Source of the DNA: Anaerovoracaceae bacterium
Lineage (GTDB): Bacteria; Bacillota; Clostridia; Peptostreptococcales; Anaerovoracaceae
Reading direction: 5' to 3'
NCBI GenBank assembly: GCA_045545455.1
Contig: JAZQAY010000120.1
Coordinates: 1,195 to 65,194, forward strand
DNA length: 64,000 nt
The notes under the pieces were generated by a model, which was given only the letters and a program-made list of their open reading frames with translations, did not search any database and was not told the origin of the DNA. Below, piece after piece: positions 1,468-28,493 of this stretch (position 1 is the first letter of the stretch; every line of letters starts with the position of its first letter). The position numbers and the translations under genes were made by a program.

Positions 1468-2223
1468 CTATATCAATCTCAGCGGTCTGGCATCCAGATA
1501 GTCCAGACTTACAAGCTTATACTCTACTCCGTTCAGAACGCCCTTCAGGCCGCGTCTGAACTTTTCCCTTCCGTGGAGGTGACCGTAGACGCAGGTCTTC
1601 ACTCCATATTCGCTCATCAGTTCCGTGAATCCGGATACCTGATGCTTGTCGTTTGTGGGAGGATAATGGAGCACTCCGATGATCTCCTTAGCTCCCTTCT
1701 TCTTTCCATCCTCCAGGGAAGCCCTGAGCCTCAGGAGTTCTCTGGAATATATCTTCTGATCGTGTTCATCGAAGCCCTCGGTGCCCGGGCAGTTCCAGCC
1801 CCTGGTGCCGCAGATGGCCAGGTCCCCGATCATATACGCTTCATTATGTACGAAGTTCATCTCAGGATCCCTGATTATCCTCTTTACCATGTGGCCGGAT
1901 CCGTTGTCCTCTTCGATCTCTTTTCCATAGAGCAGATCCAGTACTCTGTGGGATGTCCACCAGAGGTCGTGGTTGCCCTTGAAGAAGATCTTCGTGCCCG
2001 GAAGGCTCCTGAGCCAGTCCAGGTCGTACTTTGCCTCTTCAATGCCAAGCCCCCAGGAAAGATCTCCTGCGACTATCACGTAGTCATCCTCTCTGATCTC
2101 CTCTGTCCAGTTTTTATACAGCTTTTGCCAGTGATCCTCCCACTCCGGTCCGAATACGTCCATGGGCTTGTCTACCCCCGGCGCAAAGGAAAGGTGGGTG
2201 TCACCTATCGCAAATAATCTCAT
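1468..2223 (-). CDS. metallophosphoesterase family protein
   Basis: 251 aa with the GDTHL / GDLSWG / GNHD / GHLHG motif series of calcineurin-like phosphoesterases. The stop codon is TAG. Confidence 0.7.
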   Translation of the reverse strand: MRLFAIGDTHLSFAPGVDKPMDVFGPEWEDHWQKLYKNWTEEIREDDYVIVAGDLSWGLGIEEAKYDLDWLRSLPGTKIFFKGNHDLWWTSHRVLDLLYGKEIEEDNGSGHMVKRIIRDPEMNFVHNEAYMIGDLAICGTRGWNCPGTEGFDEHDQKIYSRELLRLRASLEDGKKKGAKEIIGVLHYPPTNDKHQVSGFTELMSEYGVKTCVYGHLHGREKFRRGLKGVLNGVEYKLVSLDYLDARPLRLI

Positions 2224-2229
2224 TCTATG

Positions 2230-3348
2230 TCAGTCCTCATCGTTCAGATAGAAAGCTTCCGAAAGGCCCAGCATCTCGTCTGATTCTCTTCCATCCAGAG
2301 CTTCCACTGATCTGAGTTTTCTCTCGATCGCCCTGGTCCTGGTCCCTACCAGTTTATCCAGTTCCTCATCCGCCTGTCTGAGACGGCTCCTGGTCTGCTC
2401 AAGCACCTTGCCGAAGGTGCTGAACTCGGTCTTCACAGCTCCCAGGACTTCCCACACCTCGCTGGTGTGCTTCTGTATGGCCAGCGTCCTGAATCCCATC
2501 TGGAGGCTGTTTAAAAGAGCCGCCATGGTGGTGGGTCCTGCCACGTTCACCTTGTAATCCCTCTGAAGCACCTCCACCATGCCGCGGTTCACCACCTCAG
2601 CGTATAGTCCCTCAAAAGGAAGGAACATTATGGCAAAGTCCGTCGTGTAGGGCGGAGCTATGTATTTATCCCTTATGTCCTTAGCTTCCTGCTTGATGGT
2701 CTGTTCCAGCATCTTCCAGCACTTCTCCGCAAGTTCCCTGTTTCCGCTGTCGTATGCATCTCTAAGCTGAGCATAACGGTCACCCGGGAATTTCGAGTCG
2801 ATGGGAAGATATACCGGTCTCTCACCATCTCCGGGAAGTTTGACGGCGAATTCCACCCTTTCGCGGGAGCCCGGGACTGTGGCTATATCCTCCTCGTACT
2901 GCTCCTTTGAAAGGATCTCGTCAAGGATCGCCCCAAGCTGGACTTCTCCCAGAATCCCTCTGGTCTTAACGTTGGAAAGCACCTTCTTAAGGTCTCCCAC
3001 TCCCTGAGCAAGGCTCTGCATCTCGCCTACGCTTTTATATACCTGCTCCATGGACTGCCGCATATATTCAAGCTTGCGCTCGTTTTCCACCGCCATGGAT
3101 GATATCCTGGCGTTCATGTCCATCAGCCTGGCGTCTACCTTGGCGCCGTTTTCCTGAAGCCTGCTGTCTATCAGGTCGTTGGAGTTTCTGCTCATGTCCA
3201 GATAGGCCTTGGCCATGGCGTTGACCTCACGGTTGAGGCCGCGGTTCGACATGATAAGAAAAACGATCAGCACCAGACTCAAAGCCACTATCGTTGCCAG
3301 GAACAGTATCAGAGTATTCGTATCAAGAGCCGCAATGGTTTCGTTCAT
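2230..3348 (-). CDS. rmuC: DNA recombination protein RmuC
   Basis: 372 aa with an N-terminal TM helix, a coiled-coil region and an RmuC-type C-terminal region (FAIMFLPFEGLYAEVV...). Confidence 0.75.
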   Translation of the reverse strand: MNETIAALDTNTLILFLATIVALSLVLIVFLIMSNRGLNREVNAMAKAYLDMSRNSNDLIDSRLQENGAKVDARLMDMNARISSMAVENERKLEYMRQSMEQVYKSVGEMQSLAQGVGDLKKVLSNVKTRGILGEVQLGAILDEILSKEQYEEDIATVPGSRERVEFAVKLPGDGERPVYLPIDSKFPGDRYAQLRDAYDSGNRELAEKCWKMLEQTIKQEAKDIRDKYIAPPYTTDFAIMFLPFEGLYAEVVNRGMVEVLQRDYKVNVAGPTTMAALLNSLQMGFRTLAIQKHTSEVWEVLGAVKTEFSTFGKVLEQTRSRLRQADEELDKLVGTRTRAIERKLRSVEALDGRESDEMLGLSEAFYLNDED

Positions 3349-3673
3349 ATCTCAATTATACCCTTTTATGTGTGTTTCATATGACGGGAAACTGTTCAGC
3401 CGGTGACCGCCCGAACTTATCCAGCGCCTTCTTTAACTAATATATCATATCACTTTTCAGAGCAAGAATCAACCGGACATTATGTGTATCATCGTCTGAG
3501 CCATACAGCGTTTACCTCAGATGAAAAACGCAATATCCGGGTTATTGGCCTGAAAAGTGACATACTATTTGATCAAATAACTTGTATAAACATGTTATTT
3601 TTGTTAAAATTAAATAACTATACAAAAAATCAGCGTATTCTTTGCTTTTGTTGACAGAAAGAAGGGACTAATC

Positions 3674-7743: not shown

Positions 7744-8265
7744 TTACTTATCCTTGTCGGACTTGGGGCTGAGGAACATATTGATGCCTCTTCCCTCGAA
7801 CTTGGGCTTCTTATCGACCACGCAGATATCCGATAATGACTCTGCGAAATCGTTCATCACCTCAATAGCATGGTTGGCGTAATCTCTTTCTCTTCCTCTT
7901 AAGCGAAGGGATACCTTGACACGGTTTCCTTCCTGGAGGAACTTTGACGCGTTCTTTGCCTTAACCTGAATGTCATGTTCTTCGATGAAAGTTGAAAGTC
8001 TTACTTCCTTGACCTCTGTCACCTTCTGTCTCTTCTTGGCGTCCTTTTCCCTCTTCTGGATCTCATAGCGGTACTTGCCGTAGTCCAGGATCTTGCAGAC
8101 CGGGGGATTGGCGTTGGGAGAAACGTTGACCAGATCGAGATTCTTCTCATCGGCAATGCGAAGCGCTTCCTCAATGGGAAGGATCCCCAGCATGTTGCCT
8201 TCATCATCGATAACTCTTACTTCTGCGTCACGAATTTCTTCGTTGATCAATGCTTCCTTGCTAAT
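7744..8265 (-). CDS. infC: translation initiation factor IF-3 (non-AUG ATT start)
   Basis: The track ORF (199 aa) extends through the leader. GGAGGTG (8280-8274) sits 8 nt upstream of the in-frame ATT at 8265. The product (M)SKEALINEEIRDAEVRVIDDEG parallels the Bacillus IF3 N-terminus. Confidence 0.8.
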   Translation of the reverse strand: MSKEALINEEIRDAEVRVIDDEGNMLGILPIEEALRIADEKNLDLVNVSPNANPPVCKILDYGKYRYEIQKREKDAKKRQKVTEVKEVRLSTFIEEHDIQVKAKNASKFLQEGNRVKVSLRLRGRERDYANHAIEVMNDFAESLSDICVVDKKPKFEGRGINMFLSPKSDKDK

Positions 8266-8298
8266 GGTAATTTCACCTCCTGAGTATGTCGTTCCGAC

Positions 8299-8329
8299 AA
8301 AATAAAAGCGGATGTAAAGAAACATCCGC
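8299..8329 (-). terminator. leader (attenuator) terminator upstream of infC
   Basis: Minus strand reads GCGGATGT-TTCTTT-ACATCCGC followed by TTTTATTTT. It lies between the promoter and the infC SD. Confidence 0.5.
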
Positions 8330-8422
8330 GCACACTGACTCACAGTGATAAAGTCTCTATCAACCTGAACGGGACCATTCTCGTCAGGTGAGAAGCGGAT
8401 ACTTCTTCTTCGTTACTGAACT

Positions 8423-9326: not shown

Positions 9327-10298
9327 TCATCCTATGACCAGCGGCACCAGCACAGGCACCGACAGGCACATCAGAAGTCCTATTCCGAAGCTGTAGACCA
9401 CGGTATCTTCTCTGGCAGACCTTTCAACTATGGGCATGCACACGTCCATGGCAGCCACTCCGGGAACTGCGCAGGCCTCCACATAGCCGATCTTCTGGGC
9501 CAGGAAAGGTATTCCTATTATTCCTGCAACTTCCCTTAGTACGTTATGAAGGAAACTTATGGCAGAGGCTACTGGGTATCCGGCCTGAAGTATGACGTTA
9601 GGCGCATATGTATACCAGCCGAAGCCGCAGGATATGGCGATCCCCTCCCTGAGAGTCATTGGAGATACGGCAGCGTATATTACGCCCCCAAGAACGCTTC
9701 CCAGAACTGCCGCTATGGGGAAGATGATTATCCCTGCTCCGGCTTTTTTAATGTTTCTGAAGACGGAGCCGTCCAGTCCTAATGTCAGTCCAACGGTGCC
9801 TATCAGAAGAACGAGGCAGGCTGTGAGGTATGGATCCGACTTTATCATGAACTCATCCTGAACTCCGAGTTTTTTATATATCAGGAAATAACCCACAGAC
9901 ATGCCCAGGGCGACGACGATGCCTATGATGATCGTCGATTTGATCCCTCCTACGTCCGTCTTTGCATCCCTGGCCATTTTCTGATCCTTAGGCACCCTTT
10001 CATCCCCCACGTTTCCGTAGCGGTCCATCTTAAGTATCTTTCTGGAAAGAGTGATCCCCAGCACGCTCATGACTATGGTTATTATCGTAACTATGAGCGA
10101 CTGTATGCCGATGGTCCCCAGGGAATCCACGATCTCCTTGTTGGCACCCATCCTGAGTCCCATCAGAAGGACCAGGAGATAGACCATGATGTTCATGGCG
10201 CTCTCTACCCAGCCCAGTTTTTCTTTTCTGTCGCGGAGCTTCATTCCCACGATATACATGAGTATGAGTGCGCTCCAGCACATTGCAAGTAATTTCAT
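9327..10298 (-). CDS. LysO/YbjE-family (DUF340) membrane exporter
   Basis: 323 aa, multi-TM. The C-terminal half (CGFGWYTYAPNV...FLHNVLREVAGIIGIP...AMDVCMPIV) resembles E. coli LysO as I remember it. It starts 9 nt after the pylB stop. Confidence 0.55.
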   Translation of the reverse strand: MKLLAMCWSALILMYIVGMKLRDRKEKLGWVESAMNIMVYLLVLLMGLRMGANKEIVDSLGTIGIQSLIVTIITIVMSVLGITLSRKILKMDRYGNVGDERVPKDQKMARDAKTDVGGIKSTIIIGIVVALGMSVGYFLIYKKLGVQDEFMIKSDPYLTACLVLLIGTVGLTLGLDGSVFRNIKKAGAGIIIFPIAAVLGSVLGGVIYAAVSPMTLREGIAISCGFGWYTYAPNVILQAGYPVASAISFLHNVLREVAGIIGIPFLAQKIGYVEACAVPGVAAMDVCMPIVERSAREDTVVYSFGIGLLMCLSVPVLVPLVIG

Positions 10299-10307
10299 AC
10301 GCGATTA

Positions 10308-11288
10308 TTATAAAAACTCCTTAAATTCTTCAGTGCCGGCTATTCTCAGTCCCATGGATCTGAGTATCTCAGATGCCTCTTCCACTGTCCTTCCGCCTTC
10401 GTCCACGTCCATTACGGAGTTTGCGACTCCCATAAGGCCTGACTTCGGAGGTATGATGGACGTTATGAGATTGGCTCCCGCATCTATCCTTTCCTTAAGT
10501 CCTGCGATGCCGTCCACGTCAAGGGATGCCGGTATCAGGGCCTTCGGATAGAGGATCCTCATCAGTGCGATTATCTTAAGTTCCTCCATGCGATCCGGAG
10601 TCCTTACGTTCTCCATAGGGCTTCCCGGCTGAGGTACGAAGCTCATGACCCTAACCTGCCTGGCCCCTATCTCACCCATGGTGAGCAGGGAATCCGCCAC
10701 ATCTTCAGGTGTCTCGCCTACCCCTGAGAGTATGCCCTCCTCGATGAACATTCCGCAGTCCCCGGCATGGAGTTTGGCGTGCATCCGTTCGTCGTAGTCC
10801 TGATCCTTTCTTAGTTTCCTGAACAGTTCCCTGTTATGGGTCTCCTGATACAGCGCAAAGATATCCGCGCCGGCATCTTTAAACTTATCTATGATCTCGT
10901 CAGGCACTACTCCCGGGGATATCATCACCGGCGTTCCCATGTCCTTGAGCTTTCTGATTATCCTGAGGACCGTTTCGAACCCTTCCCTGTGGTACAAAGG
11001 ATCCTCGCCCATTGTAAGGTCAATGAGGTTTACCCCGGAATCCACCAAAGCCTTTGAAAGGGCAAGCACCTCTTCCTCGGTCTTCCTGTATCTTCCGATC
11101 TCGTTTGACCTTCTGAAATAGCAGAAGTTGCAGTTGTTTCTGCAGTAAGTCGTGAAATACACGAAGCCGTAGGCGAATATCTTATCTCCCTGGACCTGAC
11201 GTCTTATCGAAGACGCACGTTCAAAAAGAGCCTTTATTTCTTTTTCATCATCGAATTCGAGAATGCGTACTATCTCTTCTTTAGTCAT
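10308..11288 (-). CDS. pylB: methylornithine synthase PylB (radical SAM)
   Basis: 326 aa with the CRNNCNFC cluster motif. DLTMGEDP, ALYQETHNRELFRKLR, VRVMSFVPQPGSPME and LIPASLDVDGIAG match methanogen PylB motifs. Confidence 0.9.
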   Translation of the reverse strand: MTKEEIVRILEFDDEKEIKALFERASSIRRQVQGDKIFAYGFVYFTTYCRNNCNFCYFRRSNEIGRYRKTEEEVLALSKALVDSGVNLIDLTMGEDPLYHREGFETVLRIIRKLKDMGTPVMISPGVVPDEIIDKFKDAGADIFALYQETHNRELFRKLRKDQDYDERMHAKLHAGDCGMFIEEGILSGVGETPEDVADSLLTMGEIGARQVRVMSFVPQPGSPMENVRTPDRMEELKIIALMRILYPKALIPASLDVDGIAGLKERIDAGANLITSIIPPKSGLMGVANSVMDVDEGGRTVEEASEILRSMGLRIAGTEEFKEFL

Positions 11289-11676: not shown

Positions 11677-11748
11677 TGGCGAGGTGACCGGGAGTCTCAC
11701 CCGGCTATCTGGATTTAGAGTCCAGGCGATCAATACGATCCTCACCCC
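11677..11748 (-). tRNA. pylT: tRNA-Pyl (anticodon CUA), CCA encoded
   Basis: Minus strand folds as GGGGTGA-G-GATC-GTATT-GATC-G-CCTGGA-CTCTAAA-TCCAGA-TAG-CCGGG-TGAGACT-CCCGG-TCACCTC-G-CCA (72 nt). It shows the tRNA-Pyl hallmarks: 1 nt between the acceptor and D stems, a 5-nt D loop without GG, a long anticodon stem, a 3-nt variable loop and no T-psi-C motif. Confidence 0.85.
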
Positions 11749-11756
11749 TCGTATTA

Positions 11757-12590
11757 TCACGGCATGGTCTTGAGTATCTCACCAAGCATCATAGCCGTTC
11801 CGATCTCAAGGTTATCATAAACAGCGGTATTTTGCAACCTTGCTGCAGCTTTTTCGTCCAAAGAAAGGGGCACTCCGGGGCTGGCATAGTAAACCTCTTC
11901 ACCAAGGTACTCCTCTGTGAGCCATCCTCCCTCATTCGTGAAATCAAGAATGAATCTGTAGTTCTTTATCTCTTCATAAGAACCGAGGACATATCTCCCC
12001 GTTTCAAGGGCATTGAAAGCATCCACAGCTTTAGGATCCTTGTCGTACATATCGAAATCGATATCATGGTTTAACAGGATCTGGACTGCCTCTTCACCTA
12101 CCAGACCATTTCCGATCACAAGGACCTTTTCTTCAGATATATCAAAGCCCGCTCTCTTCATCATGGCTCTGAGCACCATGATGTATCCCAATGCAGTTGC
12201 ATAGTTGTTCTCGCCGAAGCTTCCGTTGTCCCTGCTGAAAGCCAGATATCTGGTATCGTCTGCCATGAATATGACGCCTGCATCCATAAGTATCGAACTG
12301 TAGATACCGTCTACGTCCGTCTCCTCCGGAACGCAGGTCCTGAAACCCATGGATCTGATGATTGAGCTTATGCAGTCAGAGAAAGAGCCTATTATTCCCT
12401 CGCCCTGAGTCACAGGAACAGCTGCCACCAGCAGCTCCGATGCGTACCTGTCATATCTTTCCTTCGATATGCCAAAGGTATCCATCACCAGCCCCGCAAG
12501 ATCGAAGCCCGTCCTGAGCTTCAATTCGCTGTTATACTTATCCATGCCGTCCGTCATGTGATCTATCCATTCAGTCTTAAGTCTGGTCAT
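11757..12590 (-). CDS. pylD: pyrrolysine synthase PylD (dehydrogenase)
   Basis: 277 aa with VPVTQGEGIIGSFS, FMADDTRYLAF, a Rossmann motif (VIGNGLVG), ASPGVP and LEIGTAMML, all parallel to methanogen PylD. Confidence 0.85.
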   Translation of the reverse strand: MTRLKTEWIDHMTDGMDKYNSELKLRTGFDLAGLVMDTFGISKERYDRYASELLVAAVPVTQGEGIIGSFSDCISSIIRSMGFRTCVPEETDVDGIYSSILMDAGVIFMADDTRYLAFSRDNGSFGENNYATALGYIMVLRAMMKRAGFDISEEKVLVIGNGLVGEEAVQILLNHDIDFDMYDKDPKAVDAFNALETGRYVLGSYEEIKNYRFILDFTNEGGWLTEEYLGEEVYYASPGVPLSLDEKAAARLQNTAVYDNLEIGTAMMLGEILKTMP

Positions 12591-12603: not shown

Positions 12604-13449
12604 CTATATGTTCAGCGGTTCACCGTCGATAAATGAAAGCGTTCTCCCATACCTCTTGATGGTGCGCCCCTTATCCAGCGCCATGGTGAGCCTCTCTATA
12701 CCGAAACCGATACCCACCCAGGTATCAAACACTCCCCAGTTGGCATCCAGGAAATGGGGTCCATATGAACCTGAGGCCACTTCCATTCCGTTTATCAGTA
12801 TGTCGAACGAGACCTTGCCGTAAACCTCAGAGTCCTCCTGTACGAATTCGTATTCGCCTTCCTTGAGGCCCAGGGCTTCCATGGCGTTAAGCGCAAGCCT
12901 TTCAAGTTCCTGAAGCTGCTCTCCGTCCTTTACGGAAGCCAGTTCCACGAGATTAAGCATGGTGAACTCGTTCAGGTGCTGTGCACCCTGAGATTCCTTC
13001 CTGAAGCAAGACCCCATCTCAAAGATCTTAACGGGCTGTTTGGTGATCCTAAGGAGCTCCCTCATCTCAACGTAGAGATTCGGGGCAAGCATAGGTCTTA
13101 AGCAATGCTTTCCGTCCACCCAAAAGACCTGTTCCAGAAACTGCGATCCCGAGTCTATCCCCATCTTCTTAAGGGAGTCCTTCGATATGATCGTAGGAGT
13201 TATCACCTCGGTGAATCCCTCGTCCATAAGCCACTGGCACATCTTATTCCCCGTTATGCGGTATTTCGTCATGTGGCGGGATCCGAGAAGATCGTAGATA
13301 TCGTTTCTGGCATATCTCGTCAGTTCCTTTTCAAGCTTTCTGAAATGCTCGTTTCTCTCTTCCTTTGTTTCAAACTCCCTGTCCTGCTCCTCTTCAGGGC
13401 AGTTCAGTTCGTTCAGCCTTTCTGACTGTGTAACAGTGTATTTCTCCAT
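12604..13449 (-). CDS. pylSc: pyrrolysyl-tRNA synthetase catalytic subunit PylSc
   Basis: 281 aa with VITPTIISK, FWVDGKHCLRPMLAPNLY, CFRKESQGAQHLNEFTMLNL and GIGFGIERL. These are nearly identical to the Desulfitobacterium PylSc motifs as I remember them. The stop codon is TAG. Confidence 0.9.
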   Translation of the reverse strand: MEKYTVTQSERLNELNCPEEEQDREFETKEERNEHFRKLEKELTRYARNDIYDLLGSRHMTKYRITGNKMCQWLMDEGFTEVITPTIISKDSLKKMGIDSGSQFLEQVFWVDGKHCLRPMLAPNLYVEMRELLRITKQPVKIFEMGSCFRKESQGAQHLNEFTMLNLVELASVKDGEQLQELERLALNAMEALGLKEGEYEFVQEDSEVYGKVSFDILINGMEVASGSYGPHFLDANWGVFDTWVGIGFGIERLTMALDKGRTIKRYGRTLSFIDGEPLNI

Positions 13450-14534
13450 TTCAGCACCTCGTGCTCATCCTTTCCCCAATTGATGAATATTCCCCTGAAA
13501 TCGGACGCAGAGTCCTTATAGTCAGTCATGGTCTCCATGGAGCCCATGAAACATTTTCTGAAAGTGAGAGGCCCGGCATCCCTCATGATGTGCTCGCCCT
13601 CCTGAGTTATGACGCCGTTTGATTTTTTATAGTTCTCATAGGCGCAAAAGATCTTTTCCTGACCCTTTCCCGCAGTGTTCTCATCCCTGAATCCGCCGTA
13701 AAGAGTGACGTCCGTCAGTTCCTTAAGGAGGTTCATGCCAGAAGATTTAAGAACCGCTATGGGCGTCTGGCTGGGTATCCTGGCGTCGATCTCAAGGACC
13801 TTAAGGTCTTCCCCATCGTCGATCACTTCCACGTCCATTATTCCTTTGAGACCGACCAGTTCGGCCAGCCTCACCGCGATATCTGAAAATCTTCTCAGTT
13901 TTTCTTCGGGAAGTCTTACCGGAGAAGTGATCATATAGCAGTCGTATCCCTTGTCCACGTGGACTTCCGTCACGGTATAGGTCCTGTAGTTTCCCGGCCT
14001 TCCTATGACCTCGATGGAGTAAGAGGGTCCCTCCAGATACTCCTGGATGATATCTCCTTCTTTTTTCTCCTTAAGCGCCGCTTCCAGTTCATCCTCAGTA
14101 CATATTTTCTTTACTCCTGTGGATCCGGACCCGTCAGACGGTTTCATAACGTAGGGAAGTTTGCCTTCAGGATAATACCTGGGGCACGGTATACCGTTAT
14201 CCATGAACAGCCTGTCCGACTTTATCTTTGACTTTGTGATCTCATATGCGGCCGGATCGAAAGCGAGAGGCTTATGATACCTTTCTGCAAGTTCGCAGAT
14301 CTTGGCCAGAAGTTCATCGTTTTCGTTTGCAGGAAGTATGATGTCCGCCTCCCTGAAGGCTTCAAGTACGGCGGGGGCCTCATTCACCAGATCTCCCGGT
14401 ACGAACCCGTAAGCCAGCCCTCCCGCCGGAACTTCAGGATCTATATCTATCAGTATGCTTTTCATGCCGCAGGCTCCGGCTAGGTAGCATGCCTCCGTGC
14501 CCTGCAGCCTTCCTCCGATAATACAAATTTTCAT
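13413..14534 (-). CDS. pylC: 3-methylornithine--L-lysine ligase PylC (ATP-grasp)
   Basis: 373 aa with MKICIIGGRLQGTEACYLA and GIMDVEVI...LKVLEIDARIPSQTP. The ATG directly abuts the upstream stop (TAAATG). Confidence 0.9.
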   Translation of the reverse strand: MKICIIGGRLQGTEACYLAGACGMKSILIDIDPEVPAGGLAYGFVPGDLVNEAPAVLEAFREADIILPANENDELLAKICELAERYHKPLAFDPAAYEITKSKIKSDRLFMDNGIPCPRYYPEGKLPYVMKPSDGSGSTGVKKICTEDELEAALKEKKEGDIIQEYLEGPSYSIEVIGRPGNYRTYTVTEVHVDKGYDCYMITSPVRLPEEKLRRFSDIAVRLAELVGLKGIMDVEVIDDGEDLKVLEIDARIPSQTPIAVLKSSGMNLLKELTDVTLYGGFRDENTAGKGQEKIFCAYENYKKSNGVITQEGEHIMRDAGPLTFRKCFMGSMETMTDYKDSASDFRGIFINWGKDEHEVLKWRNTLLHSQKG

Positions 14535-16978: not shown

Positions 16979-17019
16979 TGAAAAACAAAGGGTGGTCCGT
17001 CTCCTTGACTTACCACCCT
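16979..17019 (-). terminator. intrinsic terminator after mtbB
   Basis: Minus strand reads AGGGTGGT-(15 nt)-ACCACCCT followed by TTGTTTTTC. Confidence 0.6.
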
Positions 17020-17074
17020 GTTGTTATAAAAGTTGGTTTGTTTCTGAATTCAGGTTAGTTCTAAGTCAGTTCTC

Positions 17075-18481
17075 TTATTTCAGTCCTGCCCTCTCCTTGA
17101 ACCTTTCAACGGAGTTGATCTTGATGTCGAGAACTTCAGCTATCCTGAACTTGGCTGCCATGCCGTTGTTTTCTTCTTTGCAAGGCTCTACGTGGCAAAG
17201 TCCAAGTCCCATATCTCTTCTGACATCGGACATTGTTACTACGTCGCATAATTCTGCAACGGTCACACCGAGCTTAGAAGCTACATACTCCTTCGCCTCG
17301 TCGATCTTCATCTTCTTGGCGAGCTGCATTCTGAGTACCAGGTCACCTGCCGTACGTACTCCTCCCATGCCAGCGCAGATAGCATGTGTAGCCTCCTGGC
17401 CCAAAGGATCACCTACGCCTACCTAGAAGCCGTCGATCTTACCCAGCTCGACGAGAGCTTTGTCAGCTCTTGACATTACGTCAACGGGCATGATCTCTAC
17501 CATCGGGATACCGCAAACACCCATACCTACGTCAGCGTGTACGGGGATGTTGGCTACCTTGGTGCAGGCCTGTACGAAAGTGATTACTCTGGCCATGTTC
17601 CATGCAAAGGATTTGTTGCAGTTGGTATTGACTACAAGTCCGAAAATTGAAGCTCCGGCCTGCTCAGCAAGCTTTACCTGATCATGAGGATAAAGGCCTG
17701 CGAGACGCTTGCCGTTGTATTTCAGCTTACCATGCATACCGAGAACGAATTCTCCTGCCATTCCGATCTCAACGGGGAAATCGGGATATTTGGTAGTGAT
17801 GGCTTCACAAGCTCTGAGAGCGGCCAGGAAGTCCGCATCACCTGCTGCTCCGCAGGTGTCAAGGTTCATTCCGTCAGCTCCTACGTCATAAGCCTGATCA
17901 GCTACATAGCAGATGTCCTTGATGGAATATTCAACTGCCTCCTCCTGTGCTTCAAGGGCTTCCTTGATGTGTCCGTCAGGAAGAAGTGTTGCCCAGTTGC
18001 CCGCGGGGCCATCCGGCTTGGTGTAGAATCCAAGGTCGGGCATGCCGCCGAAAAGCAGAGGCATAGTCGTAACGTTAAGGGCCTGCTTGAGAGCTCCCGC
18101 ATCACGCTTGGCAACTCCTTTAGCGGTCTTATAGTTGTAGTCGGTGTTTCCGATATCAACGGAATCGCATCCGAGACATCTCTCGTAGATAAGGGTCTCC
18201 ATTTCCTTAGGGAGAGGCATCTGAGACTTGACGTTGATCTTGTATCCGCCGGAGTCGTTGGTATTTACGATCTCTTTGCCGGGTTCAACGCCGACCACAC
18301 CGCCGGGCATGGTGATGATCTCATAGAGACGTTCGAAGTCTTCTTCGCTCATGGGGTCGATCTTACCGCGCTTGACGGCATCAGCCATGCCTTCACGCAT
18401 GTCTTGTCGGATCTCTTCCTCGGTCATGAAGACGATCGAACCATCACCCATTCGGCTTTGGTATTTCTTTTCTTCTGCCAT
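17075..18481 (-). CDS. mtbB: dimethylamine:corrinoid methyltransferase MtbB, Pyl-containing (in-frame UAG)
   Basis: Track ORFs 17423..18481 and 17075..17404 share one frame. They are separated only by TAG plus six sense codons (VGVGDP). The joined product is 468 aa. ...VELGKIDGF-[UAG]-VGVGDPLG...AGDLVLRM...EAKEYVA parallels methanogen MtbB around its Pyl. Confidence 0.9.
17423..17425 (-). other. in-frame amber (UAG) codon of mtbB, predicted pyrrolysine
   Basis: Plus-strand cta = minus-strand TAG. The reading frame is open on both sides. Confidence 0.85.
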
Positions 18482-18514: not shown

Positions 18515-20002
18515 TTATCTCTTGGACGCTTTGAACTTAGCAAGCTCTTCAGCTTCTCTCTCGCCCTCTTCAACGATGTTGTGGATAGCTCTCTGGATAT
18601 CCTCAGGAAGGGGTTCGGGATGATAATTCTCTAAGATATCGATGGCTTTGGCATGGGCAGCTTCCGTCATGGTCATTGAACCCTTCTTCTCCCAGGTCTC
18701 TCTCTGCGTACGGTCGATATACCTGGTGGTGGAAAGTTCTTTTCTCATGTACTTCAGAGTATGTCTTGTAGCCAGATAGTTGTTGGCAGGACCTACCTCC
18801 TTGATAACGTCCAGTGCCAGTGTATCTTTGTTGACGGGGATACCGTATTCGAGTCTCCTTGACATCCTTGAGATCTCCGCGTCACAAAGCAACTGCTCAT
18901 AGCTCATTGTCATACCCATTTCCATCATTCCCATTCCGTAGATCAGGTTGGAGCCTGCAAGTGCGGGAACGACGTTTGTGATGGTCTTTTCATGTCCTAA
19001 CTGGACATCGAAACATTTGCTGTCCGCCTACGTGCCGCCTACGTTAGTAGGTATTCCGTAATAGTGTCCGATCTGGCCTACCGCAGCTGAACACATGGCG
19101 TGCTCAGGAGCGCCTACCGGAGACTGTGCGGTCTTCATATCCATTATGGTAGTGGATGTACCGTAAAGGATGGGGTTTCCGGGATTCAGAATCTGGGATA
19201 AAGTGATTCCGGAAAGGATCTCAGCATTGGTGCATACCAGCGTTCCTGCCATCGTGGCGGGAGTGGTCGCTCCGCAGAGTCCCATGGAAAGGATGTCGAT
19301 GGGAAGTCCGTACTTGGCTGAAAGCCTTATGATGGATGTCTCATTCTCATTCACTTCCAGAGGGCTGTTGGGGCAGGCACCCATGGTGATGATGGGTCTT
19401 TCTCTCAGCTTATCATATCCGCCCTGGATAAGGGCAGCCATGTCGATGAATCTCTGTGTGTTTTTGATACCTTCAAGGTCGTGAGCGAAGTTCTTGGTAA
19501 GGTTGTTGAGAACTACCTCAGCTTCGTGAAGGGATCTTACCTTCTGGTTTACGTCTCCTGCTGTAACTGCTATGGAGAAGCAGTTGATCTCAGGGATGGC
19601 GTCTACGAATCTTGCTACGTTTCCGAGGTCTTCCTTGGTGGATTCTCTCAGTTCTCCGGTATAGGGGTCAAAGATGAATACGCCTGTTCCGAAGTTCTTG
19701 TAGCATACTTTCTTACCTCCGAGAACGGTATCGTTCTTGGGATCTCTTCCGCAAAGCGTGATCTCTGCGGGAGTGGACTCGATGGCATCATTAACAAGGC
19801 CCTTGGGGAACCTTACTCTGTCATTTTCATAATCAACTTCACAGCCTGCGCCTTCTAATATTTCAAGCGCTTCCTTGCCGTGCATCTGTACGCCGAAGTC
19901 ATGCATGAGATCCAGAGTCGCTTCATGGATGGCATCGAGATCCTCATTGGTCAGAACATGATAACCGAGCATGTCGGTATCGTAAGTAAACTTCTTGCTC
20001 AT
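18515..20002 (-). CDS. mttB: trimethylamine:corrinoid methyltransferase MttB, Pyl-containing (in-frame UAG)
   Basis: Track ORFs 19028..20011 and 18515..18934 are in one frame. Between them lie TAG plus 31 sense codons (ADSKCFDVQLGHEKTITNVVPALAGSNLIYG). The joined product is 495 aa from the ATG at 20002 (AGGAG SD). Confidence 0.9.
19028..19030 (-). other. in-frame amber (UAG) codon of mttB, predicted pyrrolysine
   Basis: Plus-strand cta = minus-strand TAG in the context ...IPTNVGGT-[UAG]-ADSK... Confidence 0.85.
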
Positions 20003-20035: not shown

Positions 20036-20683
20036 TTAGTTGTTTGCGATCCAGTCCATTATGAAGTTAACTGTATCAGATGCGTCTTCGCAGTACTGGT
20101 CTGCACCGATCTTATCTGCCCAGCGTCCTGTAACAGGAGCTCCGCCTACCATGGTCTTTACCTTGTCACGGATACCTGCTTCCTTGAGTGCTTCCTCGAT
20201 ATCCTTCTGAACTGTCATGGTGGTGGTAAGGAGTGCCGATGAACCAACGAAATCTGCGTTATGCTCGATAGCTGCGTCTACGAAGTTCTGAGCGGGAACT
20301 TCTCTTCCGAGGTCTACTACCTTGACGCCGTTTGTCTTGACAAGTGAAGCAACGATACCTTTTCCGATATCGTGAACGTCGCCTTCAACTGTTCCGATTA
20401 CCAGGGTACCCTTCTGCTGAACGTTGGACATATCCATCTTGCCCTCGATCTCTTCAGATACGGTCTTCATTACTTCGGTTGCAAAAATAAGTTCAGGAAG
20501 GAAGATCTCACCCATACCGAACTGATCTCCGAGTTCCTTCATGCCGGCGCTGTAGCCCTGTGTAAGCAGCTCGACCAGGTCAAGGCCTTCTTCTTCGGCC
20601 TCCTGGAGTGCTTCCATAGCCATATCCTCATCTGCTTCAATGATGGAATCTTTGGCTTTCTCGTAAATTGCTTCTTTAGCCAT
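20036..20683 (-). CDS. mttC: methylamine-type corrinoid (B12-binding) protein
   Basis: Start moved to MAKEAIYEK (GGAGGAAAATTT-ATG). It has the helical cap plus B12-binding Rossmann domain with the DxHxxG motif (GDVHDIGK). Confidence 0.85.
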   Translation of the reverse strand: MAKEAIYEKAKDSIIEADEDMAMEALQEAEEEGLDLVELLTQGYSAGMKELGDQFGMGEIFLPELIFATEVMKTVSEEIEGKMDMSNVQQKGTLVIGTVEGDVHDIGKGIVASLVKTNGVKVVDLGREVPAQNFVDAAIEHNADFVGSSALLTTTMTVQKDIEEALKEAGIRDKVKTMVGGAPVTGRWADKIGADQYCEDASDTVNFIMDWIANN

Positions 20684-21056
20684 AAATTTTCCTCCAAACA
20701 ATAATTTATATGCTTCTTTTCATCCGTGTAGTATTCCTAATATACTACGTTTATTATTATACAACTTTTGTGTCAAGCTTTGTACAGTATAAAAGGCGAT
20801 TAGTTTGCAATAGTTTTTCATTTTGTTGCCATCATGCACGTTTTAGTTATGCATATTTTGTATTAAAAAAACTGTATTCATAACTTATTTGCCAATGCGT
20901 CAAAAATGCCGGGCTTGTGCAAAATAGTTCAGTAAGATAGCAAACTAATTTTGATAATTGTTAAGGAAGAATCTATTGATTTATAGTAAAATATATACGT
21001 AGGTTTATATCGTTATATATCAACTATATTTAACTATAAGAAGAACAGGTGATTTT

Positions 21057-22421
21057 ATGGGTAAAGAATTAATAATCAAAACGTTAAGACACGAAAAGAC
21101 AGACGATATCCCCTGGGTCCCCTTTGCAGGCGTGCACGCCGGAAAGTTAAAGGGCTATACAGCTCAGGAACTTCTCACGGATGAAGACAAGCTTGTGGAA
21201 TCCCTTCTGGAAGTGGATAAGATCTACACTCCTGACGGACTTCCCGTGCTGTTTGACCTCCAGGTAGAGGCAGAGATCCTGGGCTGCGAACTCAAGTGGG
21301 CCAAGGACAATCCGCCTTCAGTAAAATCCCACCCCTGGGAAGGCCCCAACAAGGAGATACCCTGCGACTGCAAGATCCCTACTGAGGAAAGCGGCAGGAT
21401 CCCCATGATCCTGAATGCCATGAGAAGAGTAAAAGCCGAGATCGGTGACAAGACAGCCCTCTATGGACTCATTTGCGGACCCTTCACCCTCGCTTCTCAC
21501 TTGAGAGGAACCGAGATCTTCATGGATATGGTGAGCGATCCGGAGTACACCAAGGCTCTCGTAGGATACTGCGCTAAGGTAGCCATCGAAATGTCCAGAA
21601 TGTACATCGATGCCGGTATGGATGTCATAGCTGTAGTAGACCCTCTGGTATCCCAGATCTCTCCCAAGATGATCAAGAAACTCTTATCAGAGAGCTTCAC
21701 CGCAGTATTCGACTATATCAGATCCCGCGGAGCATACTCCTCCTTCTTCGTATGCGGAAACGCTACCAAGCAGATCGAGGTTATGTGCGAGATGGGACCG
21801 GACGGCATCTCCATCGATGAGAACGTCAACATGCCGAAGGCTAAGGAAGTTACCGACAAGTTCAACATCACTCTCGGAGGAAACATTCCTCTTACCACCA
21901 CCATGCTCTTCGGTAACCAGCAGGACAACATGAAGTGCGTAGTCGACCTTATCGACTCCGTAAGAGAAGTATCCGACGGAAACTTCATCATAAGCCCCGG
22001 CTGCGATATGCCTTATGACACTCCGATCGAGAACACCGTTGCCTGCGCTCAGGCAGTCAAGCACCTCGATTCAACCAGAGAGCTCATCAAGAACTACGAG
22101 ACGGTTGTTGATACCTCAAACGTTGAGATCCCCGATTATGCAAATTCCGACAAGGTCATCGTAGAACTCTTCCTGCTGGATCCCGACCAGTGCGCAGCCT
22201 GCTTCTATATGAGAGCTGCCGTCGAGGATGCTTATGAAGAGATCAAAGACTTTGCTGAGTACAGGGTTTACAAGTACTGCGTAAAGGAAGACATCCCCAG
22301 ATACGTCAAGATGGGCATGACCAACCTTCCTACCATGACCATAAACGGCGAGCAGAGATTCATCTCCATCATTCCTTCCAAGGAAGAGCTGATCTCAGCC
22401 ATCAAGGAATACGTAAAATAA
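21057..22421 (+). CDS. URO-D family methylcobamide methyltransferase (MtbA/MtaA-like MT2) fused to a C-terminal thioredoxin-like domain
   Basis: 454 aa. Residues 1-~350 have the MtaA/CmuA/URO-D pattern (PWVPFAG..., FFVCGN, ISPGCDMP). The last ~90 aa form a Thioredoxin_3-like module with CAAC. Confidence 0.65.
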   Translation: MGKELIIKTLRHEKTDDIPWVPFAGVHAGKLKGYTAQELLTDEDKLVESLLEVDKIYTPDGLPVLFDLQVEAEILGCELKWAKDNPPSVKSHPWEGPNKEIPCDCKIPTEESGRIPMILNAMRRVKAEIGDKTALYGLICGPFTLASHLRGTEIFMDMVSDPEYTKALVGYCAKVAIEMSRMYIDAGMDVIAVVDPLVSQISPKMIKKLLSESFTAVFDYIRSRGAYSSFFVCGNATKQIEVMCEMGPDGISIDENVNMPKAKEVTDKFNITLGGNIPLTTTMLFGNQQDNMKCVVDLIDSVREVSDGNFIISPGCDMPYDTPIENTVACAQAVKHLDSTRELIKNYETVVDTSNVEIPDYANSDKVIVELFLLDPDQCAACFYMRAAVEDAYEEIKDFAEYRVYKYCVKEDIPRYVKMGMTNLPTMTINGEQRFISIIPSKEELISAIKEYVK

Positions 22422-24806: not shown

Positions 24807-25748
24807 TTATTTTCTTGCCTGTTTTCCCAGGACCTCGCATTTCATGCCAAGGCTCTCGAAGTAAGCCTTTATCTCCTCCACCCTGTCGTCAGCGGGAGGT
24901 TCGAAAGTCTCAGGAGTCTTGCCAACGTTTCTGGTCTTTGATACTCCCAGCGTGTGGTAAGGAAGGAGGAAAACGTCCTCGAGTCCCAGCTCCCTGTACA
25001 GTTCTCCGGATCTCTTTATGATATCCTCCGTATCGTTCACTCCCTTGATAAGGGGCATCCTCATCATGATCTTAGGAAGCACTTCGGGATCCTTCGCAAG
25101 GGTCCGCAGATTGTTCAGGATGATCTCATTGGAGTGACCTGTGTAAGCCTTATGTACCTCATCATCGATAGCCTTCATGTCGAAGAGAATGTTGGTGACA
25201 GCGGGCTTCTTAGCCATGGCATAGAGTCTTTCTCCGTCTCCATAACCTGAAGTATCGAGACAAACACCTATGCCCTCCTCTTCAGCCAGCTCTATGAGAG
25301 CATCGCAAAAGTCAGGCTGTGCCAGCATCTCACCTCCCGAAAGAGTCATGCCTCCGCCTGTGTGGTCATAGAATCCCTTATCCTGCTTCACGTACTTCAT
25401 TACCTCTTCAGGCGTCATCTCCTCGGCCACAGGATCCAGAGAATTGGCATAGCATACTTCCGTGCACTTCATGCACATGTCGCACTTCTCACGGTCTATG
25501 TCGATCTTTCCCTTTTCGTCAACGAAGATAGCGTTCTGAGGACATTCCTTGATACAGTAGCCGCACTTGATGCAGCTGTTGGGAAGTCTGATGATCTCCT
25601 GTCCGAAATCTATCATCTCAGGATTGTGGCACCACCTGCAGTTAAGAGGACAGCCCTTGAGGAAGACCGTCGTCCTGATACCGGGACCGTCTTCAGTACT
25701 GAACTTCTGCAGCGACCCCACAAGAGCCGTTAACTTCTTATCACTCAT
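24807..25748 (-). CDS. glycyl-radical enzyme activating enzyme (radical SAM)
   Basis: 313 aa with CPLNCRWCHNPE plus two ferredoxin-type clusters (CIKCGYCIKECP, CDMCMKCTEVC). Confidence 0.85.
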   Translation of the reverse strand: MSDKKLTALVGSLQKFSTEDGPGIRTTVFLKGCPLNCRWCHNPEMIDFGQEIIRLPNSCIKCGYCIKECPQNAIFVDEKGKIDIDREKCDMCMKCTEVCYANSLDPVAEEMTPEEVMKYVKQDKGFYDHTGGGMTLSGGEMLAQPDFCDALIELAEEEGIGVCLDTSGYGDGERLYAMAKKPAVTNILFDMKAIDDEVHKAYTGHSNEIILNNLRTLAKDPEVLPKIMMRMPLIKGVNDTEDIIKRSGELYRELGLEDVFLLPYHTLGVSKTRNVGKTPETFEPPADDRVEEIKAYFESLGMKCEVLGKQARK

Positions 25749-25789
25749 TTACATACACTCCTTAAATGGGCATAATAAGTCAAATCACC

Positions 25790-26081
25790 GGCAGCCTGTA
25801 TATATTTGCGGTTTCCGCAGAAGTGCTGGATCAGCCTGCGCAGAAACGAAGCTGAGCGGCCAGATGTCCGAAACTGTCTGAGCTATCTGTCAAATCAGTA
25901 GGTGCTGTGTGAAGAGAGAGGCACTGCATGCTCACATGCGAGTGCATCTCTATGAACAGAGCAGCGAACGCAGTTCGCGCTGATTTGACAGATTGGCGAG
26001 TTTTTCGGGCTCTCCGCAAAGCAAGTTTCGAGCAGTCTCTGATCCAAACGACGAGGACTTAGCAAATATATACAGACTGCC
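25790..26081. repeat. 292-nt nested imperfect inverted repeat (rod-like hairpin) between the GRE and its activase
   Basis: The outer arms GGCAGCCTGTATATATTTGC / GCAAATATATACAGACTGCC match at 19 of 20 positions. GGATCAG/CTGATCC follows inward. An inner perfect 14-bp pair is ATCTGTCAAATCAG (25885-25898) / CTGATTTGACAGAT (25980-25993). There are apical sub-hairpins. Confidence 0.7.
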
Positions 26082-26099
26082 AGTCAATTTTAAGCTATA

Positions 26100-28493
26100 T
26101 TATGCGGTCTCTTCCTCTTCCAGATGAGCTGTTCTGTAGATGATGGCTTCCTGAGCGCTTTCATCGAGCTCTGTGAAGTAAGCCATGTATCCCGCTACAC
26201 GGACCATGAGTCCCTTGTAGTTTTCGGGATTCTTCTGAGCGTCTCTTAAAGTCTTGGTATCTACAACGTTGATCTGGATGTGCTCTCCGCCGTGATCGAA
26301 GAAGGTCTTGATAACACCTTCGATGATGTTGAGTCCCTTTTCACCTTCAACGCCCTTAGGATCGAATCTCAGGTTGAAGAGTGCTCCGTCGTGGAATGCA
26401 TCCTGTCCCATGGAAGCTACTGAAAGAACTGTAGCTGTAGGACCGTTCACGTCTCTTCCCATCATAGGAGAAGCGTTGTCGCAGAGAGGTTCTCCGGCAA
26501 GTCTTCCGTCGGGAAGCGCTCCGGTCACCTGTCCGTGTGAAACGTTTACAGTCTGTGAGTGGACGTTGAATGAGTACCAGCCGCCTCTTGCATCATGCCA
26601 TGTCTGTACGTTGTCTGCGATGAAGTGCATCATCTCTCTGTAGATGGCATCTACGTGCTCGTTATCGTTACCGAACTTGGGGGCCTTGTTCATGAGAAGC
26701 TGTCTGAGTCTCTCATATCCAACGAAGTTAGCGTCACAGGCCTTGATGAGCTCGTCCATGGTGCAGTCTTTATCTTCGAATACGCACTTCTCTACAGCTG
26801 CAATGGAGTCAGCCAGGTTGGCAGCTCCTGTGATGTAGAGACCGGCTGTGGAGTACTTGGCTCCGCCGTGCTGTACGGACTTGCCGGACTCTACGCATCC
26901 CTTGGTGACCATGGATGCGAAGATGACGGGATATCTGTTCATATGGATGGACTGCATGAGATTGTAGCCTATCCTGATCAGGTCATAGTGATGAAGGATC
27001 TGCTTCTTGAGAGCATCCTTGAATTCCTCGATATCCTTGAACTCTCTGGGATCTCCGGTCTGAAGTCCCATGAGTTTTCCTGTTGAAGGATCCACGCCGT
27101 TATGGAGTACGAATTCCAGCATCTTACCCATGTTGACGTAACCTGCATCGGGGGAACCGTCTGTGGATCCGCCTCCGGGACCGGGCTGGATGCATCCTAC
27201 GATGGTCCAGTCTCTGGCTTCCTCGATGGAGCAGCCCTTGCCGAGTGCCATCTTCATGGCAGCGTTATCGTTGAAGAATCCGGGGTTGGCCTGGCCGTCC
27301 TGGATCATCTCGCAGCCCTTCTTGATGAGGTCTTCGGGAGTTCCTTCCCAGACTCTGACAGCCATAACGGGCTGAGTTGTCTTAAGACGGTTTGCAACTT
27401 CAAGGCACATGTATGAGAGTTCGTTGGTTGCATCTCCGCCTTCGGGCTTCTGTCCGCCTACCACCAGGATCTCCCACATGGGATATCCGGCAAATGACGT
27501 AGCGTACCAGTTGTCTCTTACTTCATATACTTCGCAGGATTTGAGATACAGACAAGCCAGAAGTTCGAATGCTTCCTCTTCCGTGATATTCTTCTCGTCA
27601 ACTACGTCCTTCTTGTAGTAGGGCCACATGTACTGGTCGAATCTTCCGTAGCCGTTTGCAGTGGTGCATACTTCGATGTGGAAGAATACGTGAACGAACC
27701 AGATCATCTGAAGCGCCTGCCAGAAGGTCTGAGGGGGATTCTCGGGAACTACTCTGCAGTTAGCTGCTATCTGGAGGAGTTCAGCCTTTCTCTTCTCGTC
27801 TGTGCATTCTGCTGCCTGACGCTCTGCCTCTTCAGCCATTCTGTGTGCATAGGTGATAAGTCCGCCGCACTGGATGATGCAGGCCTTCCAGTAGTCGATC
27901 TTAGCCTGGTCTTCCATTGACTGAGGAACAAGGTTATCGATGTTTCTCTGGCACTCGTCCATATATCCCCTGATACCTACGGTGAGGATCTTCTCATGGT
28001 CGCAGGTGGTCTCACCGGATACACCATTTGTAAGTCCGACTGTGATGATATCATCCTTCATGCACTCTCTGATGTGAGGAGGGAAAGCTGTTGCGGCGAT
28101 GTCTTCCATTGCCTTGCCATCCCAGTACTTAAGAGTCTCAAGGATCTTCTCCCTGTCTTCAGGAGTGATGTCATAAGGGTCCTTGGATCTGGTAGTGAAT
28201 TCGTCGATATCGGAAATGTACCATGAGCTGGACTGGAATTCAGGATAGAGGTTAGCTCCTCTGTATCTGTCAGTAGCTGTACCTACGACCAGTTCGTCCT
28301 CCATGATCAGAGTCGTCATGTGTTCCATGACATAGTTGCAAACCTTTGCTCTGAAGATGGGAACTGCATCTCCTGCAAACTGCTTGTATGCTTCCGTTGC
28401 CAGAACGATACGCTCTGCTGTGATGGCAGGTCTGGTGTTCCAGAGTTTTTCTCTCATTCTGGTAAGTCTTTCGTTCAAATAAATGTCTTTCAT
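26100..28493 (-). CDS. glycyl radical enzyme (PFL-like fold), substrate unknown
   Basis: 797 aa with the glycyl radical motif RVAGY (G768). The Cys loop is TIVGCIQPG (C434), 334 residues upstream of G768, which is the eliminase-type spacing. Confidence 0.9.
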   Translation of the reverse strand: MKDIYLNERLTRMREKLWNTRPAITAERIVLATEAYKQFAGDAVPIFRAKVCNYVMEHMTTLIMEDELVVGTATDRYRGANLYPEFQSSSWYISDIDEFTTRSKDPYDITPEDREKILETLKYWDGKAMEDIAATAFPPHIRECMKDDIITVGLTNGVSGETTCDHEKILTVGIRGYMDECQRNIDNLVPQSMEDQAKIDYWKACIIQCGGLITYAHRMAEEAERQAAECTDEKRKAELLQIAANCRVVPENPPQTFWQALQMIWFVHVFFHIEVCTTANGYGRFDQYMWPYYKKDVVDEKNITEEEAFELLACLYLKSCEVYEVRDNWYATSFAGYPMWEILVVGGQKPEGGDATNELSYMCLEVANRLKTTQPVMAVRVWEGTPEDLIKKGCEMIQDGQANPGFFNDNAAMKMALGKGCSIEEARDWTIVGCIQPGPGGGSTDGSPDAGYVNMGKMLEFVLHNGVDPSTGKLMGLQTGDPREFKDIEEFKDALKKQILHHYDLIRIGYNLMQSIHMNRYPVIFASMVTKGCVESGKSVQHGGAKYSTAGLYITGAANLADSIAAVEKCVFEDKDCTMDELIKACDANFVGYERLRQLLMNKAPKFGNDNEHVDAIYREMMHFIADNVQTWHDARGGWYSFNVHSQTVNVSHGQVTGALPDGRLAGEPLCDNASPMMGRDVNGPTATVLSVASMGQDAFHDGALFNLRFDPKGVEGEKGLNIIEGVIKTFFDHGGEHIQINVVDTKTLRDAQKNPENYKGLMVRVAGYMAYFTELDESAQEAIIYRTAHLEEEETA

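Follow-up and report, generated by a model that had tools for sequence, protein, structure and literature searches.

In a 64,000-nucleotide stretch of DNA from an Anaerovoracaceae bacterium (Bacillota; assembly GCA_045545455.1, contig JAZQAY010000120.1, positions 1,195 to 65,194 of the forward strand; hereafter the window, whose own numbering is used below), we analyzed mtbB, a gene with an in-frame UAG. The evidence makes it very probable that mtbB is a single gene for a 468-residue dimethylamine:corrinoid methyltransferase whose codon 353, the UAG, is decoded as pyrrolysine (Pyl). The reading frame opens with ATG at 18481 and continues through 352 sense codons, the TAG, another 115 codons, and a TAA; the TAG is its sole internal stop. 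A mechanical list of open reading frames (ORFs) cuts the gene in two, into 17423..18481 (352 aa) and 17075..17404 (109 aa, TTG start), both in the same frame. A preliminary description of this DNA had proposed that the two ORFs share a frame interrupted only by the TAG at 17425-17423, with KIDGF and VGVGDPLG on its two flanks, and all of this was confirmed in the sequence, the junction reading ...ELGKIDGF / VGVGDPLGQ.... As read from the DNA, the predicted tryptic peptide of MtbB that spans the UAG would be IDGF-O-VGVGDPLGQEATHAICAGMGGVR.

For profile searches, the 468-residue product was translated with X at the TAG. PF09505 (Dimeth_Pyl) covered MtbB as a single domain running unbroken across the TAG (570.6 bits, residues 6-463, profile positions 2-462/463), which bears out the earlier claim of one 468-codon gene rather than two ORFs. 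The resemblance to MtbB proposed at the same time extends over the full length, and the score against the NCBIfam equivalog TIGR02368 was above its cut-off (439.6 versus 369.1 bits). A shared frame is weak evidence alone: 8 of the 54 long ORFs in the window have an in-frame open extension of more than 180 codons, because a neighboring gene happens to share the frame. The open extension after a stop therefore failed as a chance control, since adjacent same-frame genes give long extensions as well. What goes beyond chance at mtbB is the lack of a spacer at the TAG, the continuous homology across it, and the retention of the TAG in every TAG-type relative examined. In profile match, UAG position, downstream selection, and accompanying pyl genes, mtbB behaved as a member of its family.

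We followed the interrupted codon across related loci. When the GTDB species-representative genomes were scanned, at least 365 stretches proved to encode relatives; 80 loci, all from Bacillota, were kept from these, and 10 loci found by exact protein look-up brought the set to 90. One in-frame tblastn high-scoring segment pair bridged the site in 90/90 loci, and the codon aligned to window codon 353 was TAG in 88 of them, including all 80 GTDB-representative loci. Among these 88 TAG-type relatives (55-99% identity), we observed no frameshifts and no extra stops, and the full set of 90 was likewise free of frameshifts. A scan of viral contigs and a tblastn search of plasmids found no relatives.

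The same position was reached from the archaeal side. Cluster representatives at 50% identity were searched exhaustively, and a cluster name then led to the mtbB of Candidatus Methanomethylophilaceae (L091 and L092), a gene of 467 codons whose sole TAG, codon 355, lines up exactly with window codon 353. The two proteins are 42.7% identical overall and 50.5% identical after the TAG. Five divergent cluster representatives (41-46% identity, 353-356 aa), which are N-terminal database ORFs, all stop at the residue aligned to F352, in the form ...DG[FLV]-stop. Furthermore, the Rfam PYLIS_2 consensus, when translated (O-IGVGDPMG...AAGDLVARM), aligned gap-free with the window (O-VGVGDPLG...TAGDLVLRM), with 18/32 residues identical by hand count; the window sequence opposite the translated consensus is O-VGVGDPLGQEATHAICAGMGGVRTAGDLVLRM. 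The preliminary description had called for alignment with the Pyl position of Methanosarcina MtbB, and an alignment of this kind was found with Methanomethylophilaceae codon 355 as a stand-in and with PYLIS_2 position 1; in Methanosarcina barkeri MtbB1, the Pyl is at what we take to be residue 356. By four independent lines (the Rfam match, the ends of the divergent ORFs, the archaeal alignment, and the scan of related loci), the UAG occupies the pyrrolysine site of the MtbB family.

PYLIS_2 models the 100 nt that begin with the mtbB UAG. Its positions 1-100 matched the window gap-free, with model position 1 on the window TAG, and the score exceeded the gathering score (Table 1). Such a match speaks for a PYLIS element, a cis-acting RNA fold within the 100 nt past the UAG that would programme read-through in a SECIS-like manner, as does the pairing of an 83-sequence alignment, which was somewhat above that of slid controls (64.8% versus 29-43% of cells paired). 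However, cmscan marked many of the main-helix pairs as non-canonical, and the minimum free energy of the 100-nt stretch behind the UAG was at the shuffled level (z = 0.02). Over 83 distinct homologues, helix 1 was 56% paired, two of its pairs were formed in none, and the counts of pairs with compensatory changes equaled the shuffled expectation; the RNAalifold consensus after the UAG comprised 4 bp only, at -1.8 kcal/mol. A conserved, favored, and covarying PYLIS structure at mtbB is not supported by these data and, since the fold and pairing tests fail, the PYLIS_2 match reflects conserved coding sequence. The literature likewise sees no PYLIS element in mtbB and describes PYLIS as dispensable even in mtmB (PMC2933860; PMC12626013). 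We consider structure-programmed read-through highly unlikely.

Charged tRNA-Pyl is delivered by the standard elongation factor (PMC2933860), and in M. acetivorans UAG demonstrably acts both as a stop and as a Pyl codon, with pyl expression tuned to demand (PMC12626013). Extrapolating from Methanosarcina, mtbB would lack a dedicated recoding signal, and the outcome at the UAG is most likely set by competition of Pyl-tRNA-Pyl with release factor 1 (RF1), depending on the level of pyl expression.

Could the UAG be read as a canonical amino acid instead, either by near-cognate suppression or by a genome-wide reassignment (for example, TAG as Gln)? The database cluster P0001 (468 aa; L001:1640-3046) shows Q at the Pyl position of its protein. 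The DNA of its contigs has TAG at this position, and we rejected P0001 as a Q-containing non-Pyl variant because the Q is a translation-table artefact in which TAG was read as Gln. TAG still ends other genes in the window and is therefore not reassigned genome-wide, and the cluster that holds mtbB also contains the full pyl cassette, tRNA-Pyl(CUA) included. True non-Pyl paralogues carry a sense codon and are divergent. The two non-TAG loci in our set (L005:8001-9401 and L006:2826-4226; P0019, 466 aa, 55% identity) have TTG (Leu) at the Pyl column, and P0253 (463 aa, 34% identity) has Trp. These paralogues belong to the same Pfam family as the window MtbB and align with it colinearly over the full length, but they have a sense codon where the window gene, which is of another type, has TAG. 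P0019/L005 stands alone in the Clostridia metagenome-assembled genome (MAG) Soudan_22, with no corrinoid or pyl neighbors, and the same MAG has a TAG-type copy (L057). The non-Pyl MtbB paralogues may parallel the non-Pyl MttB superfamily. For the window gene, we regard decoding as a canonical amino acid as very improbable. At the protein level, the prediction P0121 also shows Q at the Pyl position, and Q-bearing Logan/ENA predictions can pass for non-Pyl variants.

Were the TAG a true stop, mtbB would be a truncated gene or a pseudogene whose sole product is a fragment of 352 aa, and the 115 codons beyond would be decaying. Standard gene callers annotate mtbB in this way, and TAG does terminate other genes in the window; the pylSc protein, for example, ends at its TAG exactly where the TIGR02367 profile ends, so that the TAG is a true stop there. 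However, selection on the downstream codons of mtbB argues otherwise. By Nei-Gojobori counts, with the window as the reference against each of the 90 loci, the median ratio of nonsynonymous to synonymous differences (pN/pS) was 0.23 for codons 354-468 versus 0.25 for codons 1-352, with synonymous sites near saturation both upstream and downstream of the TAG. In the nucleotide alignment, wobble in the 100 nt past the TAG was strictly at third positions and the G-x-G-D codons immediately after the TAG were invariant; xGxGD directly after the TAG ranks among the most conserved residues. The frame is intact in all 88 TAG-type loci, and the stop in their Pyl column is invariably TAG, never TAA or TGA. 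The downstream segment as a decaying pseudogene remnant is excluded, and a true stop at codon 353 is scarcely credible. The preliminary description had called the UAG a bona fide Pyl codon, and computationally this view stands, given the aligned TAG in archaeal mtbB, the purifying selection downstream, and the complete pyl cassette.

It is barely conceivable that a 352-aa N-terminal and a re-initiated ~84-109-aa C-terminal polypeptide assemble without any read-through: a Shine-Dalgarno-like AGGTGAT precedes the TTG at 17404 and many C-terminal ORFs are called separately in databases, but this string is merely the codons for G-D-P, neither it nor the TTG (Leu) codon is conserved, the starts chosen by callers vary (84-115 aa), and the invariant G-x-G-D right after the TAG would stay untranslated. 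In the alignment of related loci, the C-terminal segment has no conserved start codon; the codon used as the TTG start in the ORF list is CTC, CTG, GTA, ATC, or others in homologues, and with start codons and caller start positions this varied, a split gene based on restarting is not conserved.

Several points weigh against a Pyl-containing MtbB. Pyl insertion at codon 353 would follow from what is established for the Methanosarcina enzymes, not from the protein of this host, and the specificity for dimethylamine (DMA) and the methyl acceptor are likewise presumed from those enzymes. The archaeal comparison was made with a Methanomassiliicoccales mtbB and an Rfam consensus rather than with a named Methanosarcina protein. 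TAG is the genuine stop of ~4-5 of the ~50 genes in the window, pylSc included, and back-up stops lie 3-22 codons beyond the ends of these genes; because TAG is also a real stop here, some 352-aa truncated product is expected. A sequence search of the PDB found no solved MtbB structure, and the AlphaFold2 model (predicted local distance difference test score 70, predicted template modeling score 0.80), which has a beta/alpha repeat at residues 143-316, is of only moderate confidence, lowest at residues ~354-376, and is uninformative on the active site and Pyl353. Foldseek with this model retrieved generic TIM barrels only (E 2e-3 or worse, template modeling scores of 0.2-0.3); the model is consistent with a barrel and adds little. 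Lastly, one corrinoid gene adjoins two methyltransferases, and a window scan for long TAG-interrupted frames found mttB and mtbB only and no mtmB.

Table 1. Features of mtbB and its surroundings in the window (bit scores are given against the cut-off or gathering score of the model)
Feature	Positions	Strand	Basis or remark
mtbB, [dimethylamine--corrinoid protein] Co-methyltransferase	18481..17075	minus	468 codons including the UAG; TAA at 17077..17075
In-frame UAG, codon 353, putative Pyl codon	17425..17423	minus	Alignment to relatives, archaeal mtbB, and PYLIS_2
mtbB C-terminal 115 codons, predicted to be translated only after UAG read-through	17078..17422	minus	Selection, homology
Rfam PYLIS_2 (RF02509) match	17326..17425	minus	42.1 bits vs gathering score 36
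Intrinsic terminator-like hairpin and U-run	16981..17025	minus	~50 nt past the mtbB stop
RACo/RamA-like corrinoid reductive activase, 758 aa	14535..16811	minus	PF14574, PF17651
pylC	13413..14534	minus	TIGR03909, 342.9 bits vs 248.3
pylSc, catalytic subunit of split PylRS, 281 aa	12604..13449	minus	TIGR02367, 259.4 bits vs 178
pylD	11757..12590	minus	TIGR03911, 166.4 bits vs 150
pylT, tRNA-Pyl, anticodon CUA	11677..11750	minus	ARAGORN
pylSn, tRNA-binding small PylRS subunit, 106 aa	11298..11618	minus	TIGR03912, 121.2 bits vs 51
pylB	10308..11288	minus	TIGR03910, 444.9 bits vs 348
LysO-family (lysine exporter) membrane protein, next after pylB	9327..10298	minus	
mttB, trimethylamine methyltransferase, own in-frame UAG at 19030..19028	18515..20002	minus	TIGR02369, 626.7 bits vs 525
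Methyltransferase-cognate corrinoid protein (MttC/MtbC-like)	20036..20701	minus	TIGR02370, 222.6 bits vs 215.3
MtaA/CmuA-family (URO-D fold) methylcorrinoid methyltransferase, candidate MT2	21057..22421	plus (divergent)	TIGR01463, NF004889
Glycyl radical enzyme (797 aa, PFL2/glycerol dehydratase family) and activase	24807..28493	minus	5.6 kb from the methylamine cluster
Rfam L20 leader, Firmicutes-type autoregulatory element	8294..8416	minus	67.5 bits; upstream of infC (7744..8343)

The genes needed to make and charge Pyl lie next to mtbB. The cassette pylC, pylSc, pylD, pylT, pylSn, and pylB, in this order and with the tRNA gene in the middle, is on the same strand as mtbB, 0.3-6.8 kb downstream, and all five pyl proteins exceed the cut-offs of their NCBIfam equivalogs. 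The pyrrolysyl-tRNA synthetase (PylRS) is split into separate pylSn and pylSc genes, as in bacteria. The preliminary description had placed pylT and pylS 5 kb away from mtbB; this holds for pylT, which is 5.3 kb from the mtbB 3' end, but the synthetase gene is split, with pylSc at 3.6 kb and pylSn as a gene of its own (Table 1). The stop of pylSc is the TAG at 12606..12604. pylSc overlaps pylC by 37 nt, and read-through of its stop would append 8 residues before a TAA; TAG thus has two meanings inside one gene cluster, as the stop of pylSc and as an internal codon of mtbB and mttB. ARAGORN gave pylT a length of 74 nt and placed its anticodon at position 33, and 11 of 12 pylT calls in related loci were of 72 nt with the anticodon at 31, so the true 5' end of pylT is probably 11748; the Rfam tRNA model did not report pylT at the gathering threshold. 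Other pyl orders among the relatives are B-C-Sc, Sc-Sn-D-B-C, and Sc-D-B. We tried a link between pylB and the neighboring LysO-family gene, as Pyl is made from two lysines, and rejected it because the adjacency occurs in 1/75 relative loci and is not conserved.

Upstream of mtbB lies mttB, itself one gene interrupted by an in-frame TAG, at which a Rfam PYLIS_3 match of 73.3 bits begins. The corrinoid protein has both B12-binding domains and scores 217 bits against the MtbC equivalog (cut-off 350). The activase is matched by the AcsV and RamA models below their cut-offs, and its first ~340 residues, with no Pfam match, carry a Cys-rich CxxGxCxxC-type motif. The candidate MT2, for which TIGR01463 and NF004889 gave ~148 bits, below their cut-offs, and for which PF01208 is recorded on a same-species contig, is transcribed divergently alongside a CobW-like GTPase. 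Past the mtbB stop, the terminator-like hairpin (-22 kcal/mol, z = -5.2) is followed by UUUGUUUUU. A simple terminator scanner that accepts only loops of 3-8 nt and rejects internal ones missed the hairpin at 16981..17025, probably because its apical 3-bp helix fails the stem criteria of the scanner. Given this hairpin, corrinoid-mttB-mtbB is probably one transcription unit and RACo-pyl the next. The position of the pyl genes directly downstream of two UAG-containing genes could couple the supply of Pyl to induction by methylamines.

Taken together, these genes suggest a working scheme. PylB, PylC, and PylD would make pyrrolysine from two lysines, and the split PylRS (PylSc and PylSn) would charge it onto tRNA-Pyl(CUA), which an ordinary elongation factor would bring to the ribosome to rival RF1 at the UAG. 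Full-length MtbB would activate DMA through Pyl353 and transfer a methyl group to the Co(I) corrinoid protein, whose gene lies two places upstream, and MttB would do likewise for trimethylamine (TMA). The RACo/RamA-like protein would re-reduce oxidized corrinoid, and the MtaA-family MT2 would hand the methyl group to a further acceptor, presumably tetrahydrofolate.

The window mtbB is a bacterial gene of a rumen Anaerovoracaceae, not an archaeal or methanogen gene. Its nearest genomes are rumen MAGs labeled uncultured Clostridiales (RUG12614 at 99% and RUG12385 at 97%), next come Anaerovoracaceae MAGs, and further relatives at 68-88% are Emergencia, Ihubacter, Lentihominibacter, and Sinanaerobacter; both the split PylRS and the Firmicutes-type L20 leader are in keeping with a host from the Bacillota. 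Many relatives share the gene order corrinoid-mttB-mtbB-(RACo)-pyl. Within 6 kb of mtbB in 75 loci, we found a corrinoid gene in 65, mttB in 53, RACo in 37, and pylSc in 33, and tRNA-Pyl lies at most 6 kb downstream of mtbB in 13 of the 60 related loci scanned. The island is thus widespread in Anaerovoracaceae and related Bacillota. As to stops at the other end of the gene, the terminal stop of mtbB is TAG in 12/90 related loci, and a metagenome-derived contig (GCA_004196295.1) has a tandem mtbB pair (L093:636-2048 and 2072-3472) with TAG both at the Pyl column and as terminal stop. Farther along the window, the glycyl radical enzyme, whose adjacency to the methylamine cluster is kept in same-species contigs, was tried as a choline TMA-lyase and rejected, as it scored far below the CutC cut-off (537 versus 1050); it scored 596 against a cut-off of 1100 for the hydroxyproline dehydratase equivalog.

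The preliminary description had foreseen that standard callers would truncate mtbB, and nearly all database homologues are indeed 351-352-aa N-terminal and 84-115-aa C-terminal pieces. Two large protein searches gave, in their top 120, only bacterial N- or C-terminal pieces. Among the 120 best database homologues, 118 are N-terminal and 321-378 aa long (351-352 aa in most cases), and separately called C-terminal fragments in databases are of 84, 97, 107, 109, 113, or 115 aa. On same-species contigs, mtbB is called as 352 + 84 aa and mttB as 324 + 139 aa. That Pyl-related truncation hides these genes has already been noted in surveys (PMC7593587; PMC10653893). In practice, a single Pyl protein of 468 residues should be entered for mtbB in place of fragments or a pseudogene, and mttB calls for the same treatment. 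Getting these calls right is important when methylamine use in the rumen and gut is inventoried, with a bearing on methane precursors and on TMA and its N-oxide (TMAO). Methanomassiliicoccales methanogens carry homologous Pyl enzymes, and it is possible, if tentative, that our host and the dozens of gut and digester Bacillota with the island act as an active TMA/DMA sink that channels methyl groups into tetrahydrofolate and competes with these archaea.

The in-frame UAG of mtbB has been known since 2000 (Paul et al., 2000; summarized in PMC2933860 and PMC9842639), and Pyl at this position of Methanosarcina MtbB was confirmed by mass spectrometry (PMC2933860; PMC9842639). In 2014, mtbB was described as almost exclusive to Methanosarcinales (PMC3941956); a bacterial Pyl-type mtbB was later reported in a Peptococcaceae genome (PMC6778437), and a survey of 200,000 gut genomes curated mtbB and described a novel Anaerovoracaceae genus that encodes both TMA production and utilization (PMC10653893). 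Our finding is in this sense textbook knowledge: it adds no new mechanism and is one more well-supported bacterial case.

Like the window gene, M. barkeri MtbB1/2/3 belong to PF09505/TIGR02368, are of similar length, and have a single UAG about three-quarters along; they work with their own corrinoid protein and activase, homologues of which are encoded near the window gene. Unlike Methanosarcina, our host is bacterial, splits its PylRS, has a RACo/AcsV-like activase in place of the archaeal RamA, and presumably passes the methyl group to tetrahydrofolate rather than to coenzyme M. The Methanomethylophilaceae mtbB also adjoins a corrinoid gene and a TAG-containing mttB; however, it is an archaeal methanogen gene in the order mtbC-mtbB-mttB-mttC, versus corrinoid-mttB-mtbB in the window, and its 9-kb locus has no pyl genes. 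Closer in kind are the bacterial systems of Acetohalobium arabaticum, Bilophila wadsworthia (MttB), the DCMF Peptococcaceae, and the MAGICdb Anaerovoracaceae, which share the split PylRS, UAG-containing methyltransferases truncated in annotation, and the retention of TAG as a stop elsewhere, and in which control is thought to act via induced pyl expression (PMC3941956; PMC7593587; PMC6778437; PMC10653893). Bilophila is without mtbB (PMC7593587), whereas the window has mttB and mtbB adjacent and directly upstream of the pyl cassette, and the order C-Sc-D-T-Sn-B of this cassette differs from the typical Gram-positive order pylT-Sc-B-C-D-Sn (PMC2933860). Overall, the window differs from the archetype only in context: the host is bacterial and splits its PylRS, the cassette is rearranged, and two methyltransferases have one corrinoid protein gene beside them.

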